From a virus (taxonomy: Duplodnaviria > Caudoviricetes), in the IMG/VR virus record IMGVR_UViG_3300032225_000350, positions 1-32,159 of that record: a stretch of DNA of 32,159 nucleotides, one strand, 5' to 3'. Below the pieces are notes generated by a model, which was not told where the DNA came from, searched no databases, and worked only from the letters and a program-made list of their open reading frames with translations. This document shows, in pieces, positions 1 to 15,060 of the stretch. Position numbers and translations under genes: made by a program. Numbering within the stretch: position 1 is the first letter of the stretch; each line of letters opens with the position of its first letter.

Positions 1-123
1 AGGTGTTTGTTTGTACTGTTTCCGAACCACAGCAAATTTGTCTCTTCGCACCCGATCAAAACGAAATGATTCGACTGCCCCGTATCTGTTAAGAAAATAA
101 ATATCGTTTGTATCATATTTTGA
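1..123. repeat. Terminal direct repeat, copy 1 (circular overlap)
   Basis: Identical to 32037-32159, and an ORF reads in frame across the junction. Confidence 0.97.
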
Positions 124-843
124 GCATTCGTCTTTTATGTAAATTGTAAAGGTTTCACTTTGCGCACCGCTCCCCGTTGCTTTTACTTCTAAATATGTAG
201 CTCCGCTACTTGGAATAATTGGTATTCTTATAACTGAATCCAAAATTCCAGTTAATGTTATGGTCTGAGTAGTTGCAGCAGGATAGGTTTTTATTTGAAC
301 TGCCAGTGCATCCCCCTTCCAAAAATACAGCCAATCTTTTTGAGTGCGGTGTATTGTTTTATTTCGCATCGTTGTCAAAAACTCTGCATTTTTAGATGTG
401 TTTATTTTGTAGTCATTTTCTACAAATGTAGCAAAGTCAATAGGATGTAAAGCCATATTGTAAGCAGTTAGACCGGTAACATTTGTCAATCCGGTAGATG
501 TAATCATCGGTGACGTACTACCGGTTGAATACTCATACCCAAATTTTACATTATAGTAAAAATTACTATTAGGGCATCCACTAACTGAAACATCATTGAT
601 ATTCCAATCGTAGGTTACAAAATTTTCAATCAGTCTTGAAATGTTAAATACACCTTTGTTTGTGCTATATGGATAAATAGGGGCTTTCAAACGTGCTAAA
701 AGTGTGCTATTATTGTACACATCGCAAATGTATTTGAAGTTTGGGCTGCCATAAATTGCACCTGAACTTTCACTAATCACAAAATTCAAGTCATTATATG
801 CTGGACTATTGTTATCAGGTTTTTGATTTACTGTTATACTCAC
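1..843 (-). CDS. 5' part of a 379-aa putative tail protein spanning the circular junction (843->1, then 32036->31740)
   Basis: GTG start at 843 (MSITVNQKPDNNSPAYNDLNFVI...) lies just below a late promoter motif and is in frame with ORF 31740..32087. It precedes the large tail protein and the tape measure. Confidence 0.8.
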   Translation of the reverse strand, partial: MSITVNQKPDNNSPAYNDLNFVISESSGAIYGSPNFKYICDVYNNSTLLARLKAPIYPYSTNKGVFNISRLIENFVTYDWNINDVSVSGCPNSNFYYNVKFGYEYSTGSTSPMITSTGLTNVTGLTAYNMALHPIDFATFVENDYKINTSKNAEFLTTMRNKTIHRTQKDWLYFWKGDALAVQIKTYPAATTQTITLTGILDSVIRIPIIPSSGATYLEVKATGSGAQSETFTIYIKDECSKYDTNDIYFLNRYGAVESFRFDRVRRDKFAVVRKQYKQTP

Positions 844-876: not shown

Positions 877-1059
877 TTTGATAAAATACATATTAGTTTA
901 CTAACTTATAATTGCTCAATATAAGTTGTATGACTTATGTGGTAAAATTCATGCAATAATGCAATAATGTGCTTTTAATGTAGTATAAACCAATCATTTT
1001 GTTTCACAGAGGGACATTAGTGCCCCTCTGTTATTCATTACACATTAGCACCCTCAAAT

Positions 1060-1095
1060 AAAAAACCCCCATACTCTGTTAATTGCATGAGGGTT
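1060..1095 (-). terminator. Rho-independent terminator
   Basis: 11-bp stem AACCCUCAUGC/GUAUGGGGGUU followed by a U tract. Its G-U pairs work only on the minus strand. Confidence 0.8.
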
Positions 1096-1117
1096 GAAAA
1101 AAAACATATGAAAAAAC
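1060..1117 (-). ncRNA. Putative ~58-nt small RNA carrying an anti-start-codon sequence (GUUUUUUCAUAUGUUUUUUUU)
   Basis: Bounded by a TATATTTG promoter (1122-1129) and a terminator, with no ORF between them. Confidence 0.55.
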
Positions 1118-1121
1118 AATA

Positions 1122-1150
1122 CAAATATACTAAATTTTTGTTAAATACAA
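1122..1150 (-). promoter_or_regulatory. Bacteroidetes housekeeping-sigma promoter (TTG-N18-TATATTTG)
   Basis: Matches the -33/-7 TAnnTTTG consensus. Confidence 0.65.
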
Positions 1151-1863
1151 CATAACCGCACCTTCAAATGTAGTAACTCGTTTTATTTCTTTATTAAAAT
1201 TATTCCATTGACTTGTATAAAAACTAACTGTGTTTAGAAATTCAATCAAATCCATAGTCAAAATTGAATCCCATTGTTCACGTCTGCCTTTGCAAATCTT
1301 ATCTACGATTTCAAACCAGCTTTGAATCGGATTGCTTCGTGTTCCATTTCCTTCACCTTCGCTATCAAAAAGTCCTGAGTACTTTCCAACAACTTGGGAT
1401 AAACTTGCGAAAAAAAAAGAGAGTAAGTATTTGCAATATCATAAGGCATCTGCAAAAATAGTTCACTCACATCTTCAAAATGCTTTGCAATGTTTTTTAT
1501 TTTTTTAGGTTTACCAAATATGTTCACCTCAGTAGTTAGCATTGCCATTATTTTATGTAGATTGTTTACTATTTCATCACCACTATATTGCTGCAAACTT
1601 ATGAAGTGTTGACCTTGCATTTCAGTTGCATTTGGAATCATTTTAAAACGTCTACCTTTTAACTTGAAAGTAAAACGCAAGTTTTCACGTGGTGTGATTT
1701 CTGCGACTATCTCATTGAATCGTGCAAACAAATCTTTGACAGTCATTTCTTCTACATCGTCAATGATCTTCTTATCAATTATGCAGATAGTGTGAATGGC
1801 TTTTTCTAAGGGATTGTAGTCTTCAATCTCTTTAAGTTCTTGTAGTTGTTGTATTGTTATCAT
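1130..1863 (-). CDS. Tail assembly chaperone, long (G-T-like) form made by -1 frameshift, ~244 aa
   Basis: A T9 slippery run (plus-strand A9 at 1410-1418) opens onto a -1 frame of 93 sense codons ending at TAG 1130 (...FASLSQVVGKYSGLF...SWFEIVDKICKGRREQWDSILTMDLIEFLNTVSFY...). Confidence 0.7.
1303..1863 (-). CDS. Tail assembly chaperone, short form, 186 aa (likely start MITIQQLQ)
   Basis: ORF 1303..1902 with a better ATG at 1863 and a slippery site near the 3' end. Confidence 0.7.
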   Translation of the reverse strand: MITIQQLQELKEIEDYNPLEKAIHTICIIDKKIIDDVEEMTVKDLFARFNEIVAEITPRENLRFTFKLKGRRFKMIPNATEMQGQHFISLQQYSGDEIVNNLHKIMAMLTTEVNIFGKPKKIKNIAKHFEDVSELFLQMPYDIANTYSLFFSQVYPKLLESTQDFLIAKVKEMEHEAIRFKAGLKS

Positions 1864-1865
1864 TA

Positions 1866-2026
1866 TTAAAATTTTTCTATATAAAAACCAAACCATAGCC
1901 ATTCGATTGCTATAAGATTAATTTTTAATTTTTTATAACGCATAGTTATACGTGGTAATAGTTCAATTTGTGTAGGAAAGTTGTATAAAATTCACAATAA
2001 TATTTATGTATTTTAAATGATTTCAT
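1866..2026 (-). pseudogene. Frameshifted small gene (MKSFKIHKYYCEF / YNFPTQIELLPRITMRYKKLKINLIAIEWLWFGFYIEKF)
   Basis: Two partial frames fill the gap between terL and the chaperone. Removing 2 nt near 1985 joins them. Confidence 0.4.
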
Positions 2027-3215: not shown

Positions 3216-4228
3216 AATTCTACAAGCATATTATATCTTTGCTCATTGATAGTTTTTAAATTATGGTATTTGTCACAATAATCATAGTTCCATTGTCCAC
3301 GACCTTCTATTGGGTTTATAATACTTTTTAAACATTGATACCAACTTTCAAAAGTATTATTGCATAACATAACACCAGGATTATACAAATGAAAACTATA
3401 AGGTTTTACATAACTGCAAATAATTGGTAATTTGTATGCTGCTGCTTCTACTATTTTCAATTCGCTTTTATACTGATTAAAATTATCTTCACGCAATGGT
3501 GCAATACAGAAATCAAATAACGCATAAGATTGACCATATAAGTCTGCACGTGTACCTAACACAGTTTTAAACCATTCAGGTCGTTTGTCTAACCCTACTC
3601 CCGTAATTGCTTTTTCGCATAGATGCCACTCGGTAGCATCACTATGATACCCACACATATAAAATTCAGCATCGTAATTTTCACAGAATCTTTTTACAGC
3701 ATCTCCTACACATTTCAAATCTTCTAAATGTGAAATACCACCAACCCATCCAACACGTAACTTATCTCCCTTTTGTTTTGCCAAATTCCATTGCTCAGAA
3801 GTCAAGTCTAAAGCGTTTGGAAACGTAATTGTATTTTCGTTAAACTCTTTTACCTTACTTGCAAGGTGATCAGTTGAACACGTTACAATATCCGCTAAAC
3901 TCATTGCATCTTTTACGCAGTTTTTAATCACTTTTTTATAAAACTTAAATGCTGGATTTGAACGTGGTATAACCCAATAATCGTCTATATCGCATATAAG
4001 TTTACATTTTGCCTTTAATATTGCCTCAAATACGTTGTATTGATAAATTCCACACCACCTATTGAATACTACTGCATCATATTGCATGTAATCAATATTT
4101 ATCCAATCGGTAGGGGTTTGCGAAACGTCAACAACTATGTCGTAATCTTGCTGCATTTTAGCATATGGGGTAAATAGTCTGTGAAAACTTACCCCACTAT
4201 TGTTATCCATTAATACTAATATCTTCAT
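3206..4228 (-). CDS. Glycosyltransferase (GT-B fold, group 1-like), likely start MKILVLMD
   Basis: Motifs DIDDYW, VGWVGG and FNQYKSELKIVEAAAYKLPIICS; ATGA coupling to the upstream gene at 4225-4228. Confidence 0.85.
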   Translation of the reverse strand: MKILVLMDNNSGVSFHRLFTPYAKMQQDYDIVVDVSQTPTDWINIDYMQYDAVVFNRWCGIYQYNVFEAILKAKCKLICDIDDYWVIPRSNPAFKFYKKVIKNCVKDAMSLADIVTCSTDHLASKVKEFNENTITFPNALDLTSEQWNLAKQKGDKLRVGWVGGISHLEDLKCVGDAVKRFCENYDAEFYMCGYHSDATEWHLCEKAITGVGLDKRPEWFKTVLGTRADLYGQSYALFDFCIAPLREDNFNQYKSELKIVEAAAYKLPIICSYVKPYSFHLYNPGVMLCNNTFESWYQCLKSIINPIEGRGQWNYDYCDKYHNLKTINEQRYNMLVELCK

Positions 4229-5402: not shown

Positions 5403-5804
5403 TCATTTTTTATTGAACTTCATAAAATTTAAGTGTACTTCTTTTAGCATCTCTTTGTATTGTTTTTTATCACCGAATTTAACGTGTTCTTCACTGTAAT
5501 TTTCTGAATTGAGTTTTGCCTTGATTTCAAAAGTTAAATTGTAGGCTTCTTGTATTTTAGCTAAAGTGAGCAGGTTCGCCAGTTTGTCTCCTCTATACAA
5601 TTGTGTTATATAACTTGCTGATGTGTTAATTGCTTTAGCTAAATCTTTTTTCTTGAGAGGTTTTTCTGAATTGAGTTTTTCCAATTCACTTAAAAAACGA
5701 AACATAATCATTTTTGCTTCGTGCTCTAACTCGTCTTCTTTACTTTTTGAAGTAAAAAGACTCTCAAATTCAGGAGCAATGTTATATTTATCTTTAAATT
5801 TCAT
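5403..5804 (-). CDS. XRE/HTH protein (HigA-like antitoxin) fused to the C-terminal tail of the phage HNH protein
   Basis: HTH KKKDLAKAINTSASYITQLYRGDKLANLLTLAKI. The C-terminus HVKFGDKKQYKEMLKEVHLNFM resembles the end of small phage HNH proteins. Confidence 0.75.
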   Translation of the reverse strand: MKFKDKYNIAPEFESLFTSKSKEDELEHEAKMIMFRFLSELEKLNSEKPLKKKDLAKAINTSASYITQLYRGDKLANLLTLAKIQEAYNLTFEIKAKLNSENYSEEHVKFGDKKQYKEMLKEVHLNFMKFNKK

Positions 5805-11240: not shown

Positions 11241-11909
11241 TTAATTTGTAATTAAAATTTTGTTATGTTCATTGATAATATCTAATAAAGTATCATTATC
11301 AAAATCAAACCATTCTCCAAATATTCTATATTTTGAATACTTTAAATGTAATTTACTTTCAATATCATTATTAAATGATGCTATTAAAACCATATTTGTT
11401 TTAAATTCAGAATTTAAAGATAGAATTCTTTGAGTAATATTTTTACTTCTACCTATTTTGATAAAATTATTTTCAGGATTTTGTATTAAATATGTTTTAT
11501 ATTCAGTATAATTATTATTGTATTTACTATTTGGCAATAACATATAATCAATCCAATTAGTAATTTCAATTTTTGGCATATTGTTAAATTTACCATCTAC
11601 TAAATCCTTTATAAAAATTGCACTATTATGTGAATCATTATTCATACATAAAGCTAATTGAATTTTAGGATGCATATAAATTTTTTTATTATTTCCACGT
11701 CCAATTACTTCATATAATTTTAGTGATTTTAAAACTATTAAAATGCTATTTGTTTCACATTTTTGAAAAAATTCAAAATAGTCTGGTTCACCTATTTCAT
11801 TATAAATAATAAAATAAATTCTTTCTGTGTACATTTTTTTTCTGTACAAATCGTTTAAATCAAAGTTATCTAAATAACTGAATAGTGGTTCTAAGTTTTT
11901 TTTCTGCAT
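11241..11909 (-). CDS. T5orf172/GIY-YIG-like domain protein with a possible KilA-N-like N-terminus
   Basis: YLIQ...IKIGRSKN...R...ESKLH...RIFGEWF; YMHPKI resembles KilA-N; very AT-rich. Confidence 0.75.
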   Translation of the reverse strand: MQKKNLEPLFSYLDNFDLNDLYRKKMYTERIYFIIYNEIGEPDYFEFFQKCETNSILIVLKSLKLYEVIGRGNNKKIYMHPKIQLALCMNNDSHNSAIFIKDLVDGKFNNMPKIEITNWIDYMLLPNSKYNNNYTEYKTYLIQNPENNFIKIGRSKNITQRILSLNSEFKTNMVLIASFNNDIESKLHLKYSKYRIFGEWFDFDNDTLLDIINEHNKILITN

Positions 11910-12005
11910 AAAAAAAGCCCAACCAAAATAGTGCAGTTCAGGTGCGACTATTTTAATTGAGCCAATATCTTTTAAGTAATCGGAATCCTGAACATTCCAC
12001 TTAAC
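11910..12005 (-). ncRNA. Structured leader RNA / attenuator with complementary loops
   Basis: Two hairpins with loops GUUCAGG and CCUGAAC. The second is followed by U7, and a promoter lies immediately upstream. Confidence 0.7.
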
Positions 12006-12009
12006 AATA

Positions 12010-12041
12010 CAAATATAATCAATTTATTTTTCAAAAACAAA
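12010..12041 (-). promoter_or_regulatory. Early promoter TTTG-N20-TATATTTG
   Basis: Bacteroidetes -33/-7 consensus. Confidence 0.75.
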
Positions 12042-12950: not shown

Positions 12951-13138
12951 ATTTCAACTAAGTTAAAAAGTCCAACATAAGTAAACGAATCACATTCACC
13001 CAAAATCGCATCAGTTCCATAATGCTTGTATTTAGTTTTGATACTGCCCACAGTTGCATCTGCAACCTTTGATACTACCCATTCAAATGCTTCTTGCATT
13101 GAAAAAAATCGCTGAATAATTATTGTTTTCTTTTTCAT
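12944..13138 (-). CDS. Hypothetical protein
   Basis: First gene after the promoter at 13156. Confidence 0.65.
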   Translation of the reverse strand: MKKKTIIIQRFFSMQEAFEWVVSKVADATVGSIKTKYKHYGTDAILGECDSFTYVGLFNLVEIC

Positions 13139-13833: not shown

Positions 13834-14207
13834 TATGGTTCGTTGGTTATTTCAATTGTTTTGATATATTTGAATCCCTCGTATTTACTTATTACAGCTT
13901 CTTCTTTGGATTCACTTCTTGCATCACCGATAACAAGCGTATCACCATAATCATAAACATTTACCCAACGTGATTTTTTTTCACCTGCCATAAATAAATC
14001 CCATGATGATTCTTTTGTTGGATTGTAAATTCCTTTTGTAGTCCAATATAACACATCATTAACACCTTCTATTGTACCGTATAATGGTTGTATAAGAATT
14101 TCATTTTTGAATAAATGTAATTCTGTTACTTTTTTACCGTTGCGTGTTACTACTGGTTCACCAGCCAAAGCACGTTCTAAATTAAATTTTTTCATATTAT
14201 TTTCCAA
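13833..14207 (-). CDS. Hypothetical protein (FNLERALAGEPVVTRNG); may start at ATG 14195
   Basis: ORF inserted between erf and the exonuclease. Confidence 0.7.
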   Translation of the reverse strand: MENNMKKFNLERALAGEPVVTRNGKKVTELHLFKNEILIQPLYGTIEGVNDVLYWTTKGIYNPTKESSWDLFMAGEKKSRWVNVYDYGDTLVIGDARSESKEEAVISKYEGFKYIKTIEITNEP

Positions 14208-14224
14208 TAGTTTAAATTAATATT

Positions 14225-14758
14225 TCATTTTGCTGCTATCAGCAATTTTTTGTTTTCAGCACTAATCGTATACTTGCGTTCAATATCTTCCATAAGTCCA
14301 CCCGTTTGCAAGTGTTCCTTTGCCTTATTCCAATTGCTATGTTTAGGCGTTAAGTCTTCTTTTGCAACTTGTTTAGATTGTGATACATTACCAGTCGCTG
14401 CATTGCCGTCATCGTCATCGTCTATGTTTAAATTCAATATAGATGAAATTGAATATCTACGTGCATAACTTACCCCACTACCAAGTTGTTGTGGGTTGGT
14501 TGCATCTTTACACAAAATATCGTAAACACTTTCTATTGTTTGACCGGTATCAATGTGAATCAATTTTGTAACAACACAATTATTCATAACTGGTTGTATA
14601 ATCAATAAACCATTCTTTTTAAGAATAGGTGTAATGATACTTAAAATGTGTGGTAATGTCGCATACTTTGAACCTTTGAAAAAAGGATTAGATGCGTCTT
14701 TGCTAATTTTCGGACATTCTGCCTGAAAATTGCTTACTGAATTAAATAGTTCTTTCAT
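14225..14758 (-). CDS. erf: ERF-family ssDNA-annealing recombinase
   Basis: Motifs NPFFKGSKYATL and QQLGSGVSYARRYSI...DDDDGN. Confidence 0.9.
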   Translation of the reverse strand: MKELFNSVSNFQAECPKISKDASNPFFKGSKYATLPHILSIITPILKKNGLLIIQPVMNNCVVTKLIHIDTGQTIESVYDILCKDATNPQQLGSGVSYARRYSISSILNLNIDDDDDGNAATGNVSQSKQVAKEDLTPKHSNWNKAKEHLQTGGLMEDIERKYTISAENKKLLIAAK

Positions 14759-15060
14759 AGTTTATTTTCGGTTATTAATTTGTCAATAGCATTACACAAA
14801 GAATATTGTGCAAAATCGGTCATCAACTCCCAGTTTATATCTGCATATCTTAACCCATCTTCGTCTTGTTCCCAATGCCTAAATTCTTCAATTAAATCTT
14901 CTTCGTTTTCAATGAGTAAACTTTTTACAATTTCTTCATCAAACTCATTATCGTTAACCCCATCAAAAAAATGCAATTTACCTTCAAAAAAATTTGCACT
15001 CATTTTAAGCCGTTGTAAGCGTGTTATAGCATTATCCATAACATTAATTATTGCCTTCAT
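14755..15060 (-). CDS. Acidic hypothetical protein
   Basis: 101-aa ORF overlapping its neighbours. Confidence 0.7.
   Translation of the reverse strand: MKAIINVMDNAITRLQRLKMSANFFEGKLHFFDGVNDNEFDEEIVKSLLIENEEDLIEEFRHWEQDEDGLRYADINWELMTDFAQYSLCNAIDKLITENKL

Follow-up and report, generated by a model that had tools for sequence, protein, structure and literature searches.

What does a promoter, a short leader and a terminator standing between two genes of a phage contribute to that phage? We addressed this question for positions 1060..1150, minus strand, of the window, by which we mean the whole stretch of DNA analysed (32,159 nucleotides). With direct terminal repeats of 123 nt, the window represents a complete phage record of 32.2 kb, and its ORF list places nearly all genes on the minus strand. 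Pfam and PHROG searches identified terminase, portal, tape measure, DnaB and its loader, an ERF recombinase and a YqaJ exonuclease; among the proteins scanned, neither an integrase nor an antiterminator family was matched. No close cultured phage relative was found by terminase (best 32% identity) or by DNA, and the capsid-like protein gave a single match, at 23-26% identity, among 401 sampled Bacteroidota genomes. The unit and its two neighbours comprise the following features.

1..843, minus strand: downstream virion-module gene, which runs on through the 123-nt terminal repeat and is the conserved downstream neighbour of the unit
1060..1095, minus strand: intrinsic terminator with an 11-bp stem, two G-U pairs, a 10-nt loop and a U6 tail (hairpin 1095-1064)
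1096..1117, minus strand: single-stranded leader and seed, GUUUUUUCAUAUGUUUUUUUUC, with an anti-AUG CAU at 1110-1108, unpaired in both the MFE and the centroid structure
1122..1150, minus strand: promoter of Bacteroidota type, read from the sequence as TTG (1150-1148), an 18-nt spacer and TATATTTG (1129-1122)
1130..1902, minus strand: upstream gene (1902-1303) plus a 56-codon trailing frame ending at 1130, from the ORF list and syntenic in L001-L025

A preliminary description of this locus had proposed a stand-alone small-RNA gene on the minus strand, antisense to a Bacteroidota-type translation start, and our results support that proposal. The promoter, the U-rich leader and the terminator are all present where it had placed them. 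The leader GUUUUUUCAUAUGUUUUUUUU (1117-1097) begins four bases after the promoter octamer, and the promoter, whose Bacteroidota-type label follows a consensus that we assume here, shares positions 1132-1130 with the TAG stop that closes the upstream frame. The proposed minus orientation was likewise borne out: the minus strand reaches a folding energy of -15.1 kcal/mol (z -3.5) and leaves the leader free, compared with -7.6 (z -1.3) for the plus strand, and the stem contains two G-U pairs. Copies of TATATTTG also lie upstream of phage genes at 15244, 13163, 12017, 9336 and 2046, and such boxes upstream of several genes presumably fit the Bacteroidota promoter consensus. The octamer alone occurs at chance in the window (69 TANNTTTG sites, 62 expected); in so A-T-rich a genome, the case therefore rests on the combination of elements and on the relatives. 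A unit finder run over the whole genome returned 1060..1150 as the sole promoter-leader-terminator unit, and our terminator scan, which accepts loops of up to 8 nt, missed the hairpin at 1095-1064 because its loop is 10 nt. We are confident that the unit is a real small-RNA gene. The preliminary description overreached in stating that it can only make a short RNA, since the terminator also ends the same-strand transcript arriving from upstream.

The surroundings of the unit hold several further features. The upstream gene (1902-1303) and its trailing frame matched no Pfam or PHROG family; judging by position, we take the gene (1130..1902) to be a likely tail chaperone. The 56-codon frame (window 1130-1300, minus strand) follows it in another reading frame and is kept in relatives, and a run of nine T lies earlier in the gene, at ~1407-1416 (minus strand), an arrangement that to us resembles, presumably, a tail-chaperone frameshift. 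A near-perfect hairpin without a U-tail (window 1006-1031; -18.7 kcal/mol, z -4.7) lies 30 nt beyond the terminator, and among the relatives examined a similar hairpin occurs only in L002. The word GAGGGTGCT occurs once, at window 1047-1055, and in two or three tandem copies past the terminator in L002, L003 and L005. Elsewhere in the window, the genes for an HTH regulator and a T5orf172/MUG113 protein (5403-5804 and 11241-11909) lie within the most A-T-rich stretches and look like accessory insertions. The promoter TATATTTG at 12017 (minus strand) is followed by a 100-nt two-hairpin element with a terminal U-run (z -4.0), which lies directly before the T5orf172/MUG113 gene (window 11905-12017, minus strand). 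Similar units of a promoter and two hairpins are present in G001, G004, G419, G421, G425, G426, G509, G510, G512 and G513, and these may be attenuators or a second RNA class.

Using the upstream protein, we found 25 syntenic loci, 24 of which reach past the promoter and form the informative set. The preliminary description had suggested searching related phages for such units, and all 24 informative relatives proved positive: promoter, pyrimidine-rich leader and terminator are kept at the same place in each, and 13 of the 24 carry two complete units in tandem. In the 16 aligned relatives, the promoter columns TA..TTTG are invariant, 97% of the terminator stem cells are paired (0/500 shuffles as high), and four of the nine stem pairs have changed on both sides, a compensatory signal. 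The leader itself varies widely between relatives, with GUU(C/U)UUUC kept in 23/24. The preliminary description had staked its reading on conservation of the CAU, and on this point it failed within the lineage: the triplet is present in only 3/24 relatives. The first of the tandem units, with the leader GTTCTTCTAAAATAC..., is conserved in 13/24 relatives (L010, L012-L018, L020-L024; ~3732-3800), and this leader matched neither erf, the recombinase gene discussed below, nor any other start of its own genome. In L003 and L005 (~3740-3890), leader and terminator are separated by an insert of ~85 nt that folds back onto the seed, and this form would be a self-masked variant.

The closest known systems are the paralogous FopS sRNAs and GibS, both of Bacteroides thetaiotaomicron. 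FopS and GibS repress by covering the start codons of mRNAs that lack a Shine-Dalgarno site, FopS acting in this way on SusC-like transporters; one FopS copy has been reported in a phage, and phages have been suggested to spread FopS (PMC11697453 and, for start-codon covering, PMC7366714). FopS (RF04319) and GibS resemble the phage unit in a housekeeping-sigma promoter, a single-stranded 5' seed, an intrinsic terminator, a size of 60-70 nt, a seed word GUUUUU(U)CAU complementary to AUGAAAAAC, and a site of action that spans the start codon of messages with no Shine-Dalgarno site. The FopS consensus opens with GUGUUUUUCAU, compared with UUGUUUUUUCAU in the phage leader, so that an R1-type anti-AUG seed is present here, although its CAU recurs in just the three relatives. 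The R1' seed and the 3' body differ, the 25 nt after the phage seed being unrelated to the consensus. The RF04319 model gave no match on the phage at its gathering score (56 bits), nor at E<=10 in 850-1350, whereas the positive controls L060 and L132 scored 80.7 and 82.3 bits; Rfam as a whole yielded nothing on the phage at gathering score and five chance-level matches at E<=10. Over five non-gut Bacteroidota genomes, the FopS model gave 0/5 above the cut-off. L060 (1441-1512) and L132 (242-312) are provirus records that carry true FopS genes. FopS also occurs as multiple paralogues per genome, whereas the phage genome has one unit and 13/24 relatives have two, and FopS targets host SusC, whereas the predicted target of the phage RNA is a phage recombinase. 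FopS is also an RbpB-bound RNA. By analogy, then, the unit would work like FopS and GibS without being a member of RF04319.

Other phages also encode short antisense RNAs: P22 sar and P1/P7 c4 (68-77 nt) repress translation of a message of their own phage, and c4 underlies immunity to co-infection, according to a review (PMC12197685). Their target is the antirepressor mRNA encoded beside them, whereas the predicted target of the phage unit lies 13.6 kb away and encodes a recombinase. The Rfam C4 model gave no match in the phage, and the unit folds as a single hairpin. As to a Bacteroidota phage or a recombinase target, the accessible text of PMC12197685 has no occurrence of 'Bacteroid' or 'recombina'.

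Two other kinds of element were considered and rejected. A type I antitoxin or cis-antisense RNA would face a conserved small ORF on the opposite strand; here that ORF has 15 codons, its counterparts in 29 members of the wider class described below are unrelated in sequence and have a median length of 15 aa, and the opposite-strand AUG is absent in most relatives. A Nus-factor boxA would resemble the host rRNA leader and spacer word GTTCATTGA, found in two Flavobacteriaceae-type genomes and taken by us to be boxA; the phage leader has GTTTTTTCA, differing at 3/9 places, and relatives differ at two.

The predicted target, and a possible second one, are as follows.

14180..14207, minus strand: possible secondary target, the start of a 120-aa ORF at 14195 (MKKFN), -15.1 kcal/mol, 2nd of 51, with a 12-bp contiguous helix
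14225..14758, minus strand: erf, the ERF single-strand annealing recombinase gene (Pfam PF04404, E 9e-21; PHROG 2324)
14749..14769, minus strand: predicted target, the erf start region GAAAAUAAACUAUGAAAGAAC, with its AUG at 14758-14756

We found that the leader can form 20 pairs with the erf start at -18.2 kcal/mol, ranking it first of 51 own starts, which were picked by a simple A-richness rule without a gene caller, so that some are wrong. The erf start is also the best 40-nt window of the phage sense strand for leader pairing. The helix consists of 11 contiguous pairs through the AUG (one of them G-U), a bulge, four pairs, a mismatch and five pairs, and is A-U rich, with three G-C pairs. 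The erf start region folds as locally unstructured, and when the complete RNA is co-folded with 130 nt of erf, the gain is ~18 kcal/mol (MFE) or ~17 (ensemble). When the core word was fixed and the rest of the leader shuffled, 0/30 shuffles bound erf as well as the native leader did. The erf AUG overlaps the stop of the upstream ORF (ORF list and sequence), to which erf is translationally coupled. The preliminary description had named two matching starts within the genome: that at 14195 ranks second (-15.1 kcal/mol), while that at 13138 ranks only 13th (-10.2). It had also offered phage early genes as alternative targets, an idea that our data favour, but its picture was incomplete in naming neither the best partner, erf (14758), nor the closest family, FopS and GibS.

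The erf start carries marks of constraint across the lineage. Among G000-G005, where G000 is the studied genome, erf ranks 1, 2, 3, 6, 1 and 1 among own starts; G005 has an additional tandem unit, for which erf is 5th, and G509 ranks it 4/49. For comparison with host genes we used a surrogate, 600 kb of one Flavobacterium with 462 starts; the true host may differ and hold a better target. For 8/10 leader variants, the median erf start of the lineage beats 93-100% of these 462 starts, the misfits being tandem unit 1 and L886. The conserved GUU(C/U)UUUC fits AUGAAAGAAC of erf, a word carried by 0/462 surrogate starts, and the word GUUCUUUC of the relatives is perfectly complementary to GAAAGAAC of erf. 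ATGAAAGAAC likewise opens 0/462 surrogate starts, and ATGAAAGAAC-TATTT is nearly invariant across 34 erf alleles. All 34 distinct alleles use the same codons for Glu3 (GAA), Leu4 (CTA) and Phe5 (TTT). CTA is rare, accounting for 63/819 of the window's Leu codons, and 2-6 codons are used at each of the 12 further conserved Leu columns of erf. Invariance of 12/12 bases in codons 2-5 was seen in erf alone among 23 orthologue sets, in a gene where 18/120 conserved columns are single-codon anyway. The C of CTA pairs with the first G of the seed and sits beyond the stop of the overlapping upstream ORF, and thus the overlap does not account for the frozen codon. A conserved seed, GUU(C/U)UUUC, facing a conserved complementary site in erf is what is expected of a trans-acting sRNA. 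Co-variation of leader and erf within the lineage was not significant (permutation p=0.14 for 8 pairs and 0.11 for 7), and there are mismatches to own targets: the G003 leader binds its own erf worst (-10.3), and the G001 leader binds the erf of G005 better than its own. On balance, we give erf an even chance of being the main target of the RNA.

We next consider host messages, since the preliminary description had proposed that the RNA silences many host genes beginning Met-Lys-Lys. In its generic form this proposal is not supported. The median leader pairing is -7.7 kcal/mol over the 462 surrogate starts and -7.1 over internal Met codons, while shuffled leaders give -6.5 +/- 0.6; pairing is thus ~1 kcal/mol better than for shuffled leaders, the comparison that the preliminary description had put forward, but only 0.6 better than at internal codons. 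A pairing of -14 is reached by 1.1% of surrogate starts and 1.7% of internal codons, the best surrogate start reaches -15.3 against -18.2 for erf, and changing CAU to GUA did not weaken median host pairing. ATGAA opens 180/462 surrogate starts, compared with 50/418 internal Met codons, and 9/55 of the phage's own genes start ATGAAA/G. A remnant of the host idea stands, in that the studied leader forms helices of at least 10 bp through the AUG at 49/462 surrogate starts, compared with 13/418 internal codons. Under a looser helix rule, 41/86 paired starts are signal-peptide-like, compared with 138/462 overall (p=1e-4), and for the L002 leader 31/48 paired starts are. The other eight lineage variants reach 1-22 surrogate starts each, with no signal-peptide enrichment. 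With respect to SusC-like targeting, signal-peptide-like enrichment was thus seen for 2/10 variants in the surrogate host, among matches that carry no SusC annotation.

We also asked whether erf targeting extends to other phages. The ranks were computed with an 18-mer self-filter, and 25 shorter records from the unit scan lay outside the erf search. In the first 15 erf-bearing records, the own leader ranks erf first in 6/16 units, compared with 6/160 for foreign leaders. A further 16 records gave the same figures, 6/16 and 6/160; 12 of these 16 belong to clusters already sampled, and the four new clusters rank erf 1/42, 25/47, 22/60 and 82/113. At the level of clusters, the own-versus-foreign erf test agrees in 6/9 (p=0.30). 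Own genomes did not offer better best-starts than foreign ones (13 clusters, p=0.40, under a wider self-filter that could drop true targets with a perfect 12-mer), and there was no preference for promoter-proximal starts (9/18 clusters, p=0.93). In the largest cluster, 19 records around G484, the leader mirrors a motif common to several early promoter-proximal starts, including erf. The best start for G411 is an exonuclease-like gene (-26.6), and the best AUG start for G412 is an exonuclease. Four near-complete genomes of phages with a 50%-identical erf showed no unit of this kind. A pattern search for units in 21 erf-bearing records gave no match; it also missed the known G509 unit and is therefore insensitive. 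We conclude that erf is the best-supported target in the studied genome and not a rule of the class.

That class emerged from a scan in which viral contigs were searched for the promoter octamer together with a terminator tail, the leader being left unspecified. The scan yielded 119 matches, 107 of them distinct; 97 combine a paired tail with a leader at least 12 nt long, and these form 58 clusters at 70% identity. TTCAT (UUCAU in RNA) is the top enriched 5-mer, present in 29/58 leader clusters with 4.3 expected from shuffles. With a scrambled octamer (120 matches, 46 clusters), TTCAT appeared in 2/46 (Fisher p=2e-7), indicating that the enrichment depends on the promoter. That TTCAT might be the start of a divergent gene on the opposite strand was rejected, the ORFs having a median of 15 aa and 2/29 exceeding 50 aa. 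Seven of 49 units, in 7/22 phage clusters, point away from both neighbours, and the class therefore cannot consist of terminators or late gates alone. Two matches of the scan, in L060 and L132, are the true FopS genes noted above. Many other units start within 20 nt of an upstream stop codon, and several of the proteins upstream look, from their N-termini, like what we presume to be endolysins. For one narrow anti-start pattern we estimate ~380 stretches in viral contigs. In cellular contigs (8/64 parts scanned), the octamer-and-tail pattern of the viral scan was mostly chance, with a hairpin and a TTCAT leader in 4/120 matches, two of the four from Bacteroidota, and 0/15 units in the 600 kb of Flavobacterium carried TTCAT. 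Anti-start-codon units are thus common in viral contigs, whereas the sampled cellular DNA contains few. On chromosomes, L389 (Chitinophagales) and L400 (Lutibacter, with the word twice) have promoter-leader-terminator units that carry GTTTTCAT. A longer conserved unit beginning GTGTTTTTCATA, with no Rfam match, occurs in viral records L028, L102, L114, L117, L127 and L145, and permuted tmRNA matches lie beside anti-start units in two viral contigs (L077:1615-1843 and L093:1158-1400). In the literature we found nothing on such a phage class beyond the one phage FopS copy, subscription journals lying largely outside the coverage.

Our preferred reading, to which we assign about one half of the overall probability, is that the phage has here a conserved gene whose predicted product, a trans-acting sRNA of ~58 nt and of FopS/GibS type, likely pairs across the erf start and would block its translation. 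Several other readings account for parts of these data. The RNA could instead be a FopS-like molecule whose main targets are host messages encoding secreted and outer-membrane proteins with MKK starts, lowering receptors and transporters and so limiting superinfection, with the fit to erf secondary. The action of FopS on SusC-like transporters and the opening word shared with its consensus speak for this (PMC11697453), as do the true FopS genes in two provirus records, the 49/462 long helices and the signal-peptide-like enrichment for the studied and L002 leaders. We nevertheless regard it as unlikely: the other eight variants show neither that reach nor that enrichment, no surrogate start beats -15.3, and the frozen erf codons are left unexplained. 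Broader still is the idea that the RNA acts against initiation in general and switches off much of the host's protein synthesis. It would suit the excess of ATGAA at surrogate starts and the rank of TTCAT as top 5-mer of the class; given the weak median host pairing, however, general shut-off is unlikely, and because the advantage over internal codons and shuffles is so small, GUA serves as well as CAU, 21/24 relatives lack the CAU and the phage's own starts look alike, we consider this reading highly improbable.

In lambda, the late gate pR'-tR' sets a promoter, a short leader and a terminator before the virion genes, and the unit might be a cis-only element of this kind, a terminator for the packaging transcript joined to a promoter, with the RNA a by-product. 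In the lineage both neighbours do lie on the same strand with virion genes after the terminator, and the leader does vary widely. Class members, however, also oppose both neighbours (7/49) or lie in tandem, and no antiterminator family was matched; the TTCAT enrichment is promoter-dependent, 13/24 relatives have two complete units, the leader departs from the rRNA word GTTCATTGA, and the erf match is left unexplained. We hold such a gate to be distinctly unlikely. A multi-target switch for a set of phage early genes, erf being one among them, seems a little less probable again. The motif mirrored in the G484 cluster suggests it, and in the studied genome early starts have a slight pairing advantage over late ones (-8.5 and -6.5, p=0.06), with 14195 second; yet erf leads by 3 kcal/mol, the starts ranked 2-6 belong to both early and late genes, and the genome's start list has no evident motif shared by early starts.

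If the unit does act on erf, the host-type promoter would transcribe a ~58-nt RNA with an unpaired 5' end, which, given the complementarity, would pair across the erf start codon in the cell and, by analogy with FopS and GibS, block initiation. Coupling of erf to the upstream ORF could bypass or weaken such a block. Because the unit has a host-type promoter and also lies at the 3' end of the terminase-bearing transcript, the RNA would accumulate as infection proceeds, and recombination might be turned down when packaging starts. RNA already present might also damp the erf of an incoming relative, since all erf starts of the lineage fit it. For the studied variant, weaker targets with A-rich MK starts (14195, host envelope genes) may apply.

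These findings suggest a wider picture, which we offer tentatively and think somewhat less probable than erf targeting itself. In hosts that start translation without a Shine-Dalgarno site, Bacteroidota phages may repeatedly have evolved a one-gene RNA switch in which one of their own early start regions, copied in inverted form, is framed by a host promoter and a terminator, in many cases where an operon ends. Several lineages would have tuned it to recombination genes (erf, and the exonucleases of G411 and G412) as a timer that ends recombination and an RNA-based means of kin exclusion; hundreds of such switches would lie unannotated, and gut FopS would be one domesticated branch. Targets are known for few small RNAs of phages, and the accessible part of one review has none from Bacteroidota phages (PMC12197685); the present analysis provides a concrete predicted pair, an RNA of 58 nt and the erf start. 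If true, it would offer a minimal natural scaffold for programmable knock-down in Bacteroidota, would bear on the suggested spread of FopS by phages (PMC11697453), and would make RNA control a further layer both in how recombination is timed and in how related phages compete.
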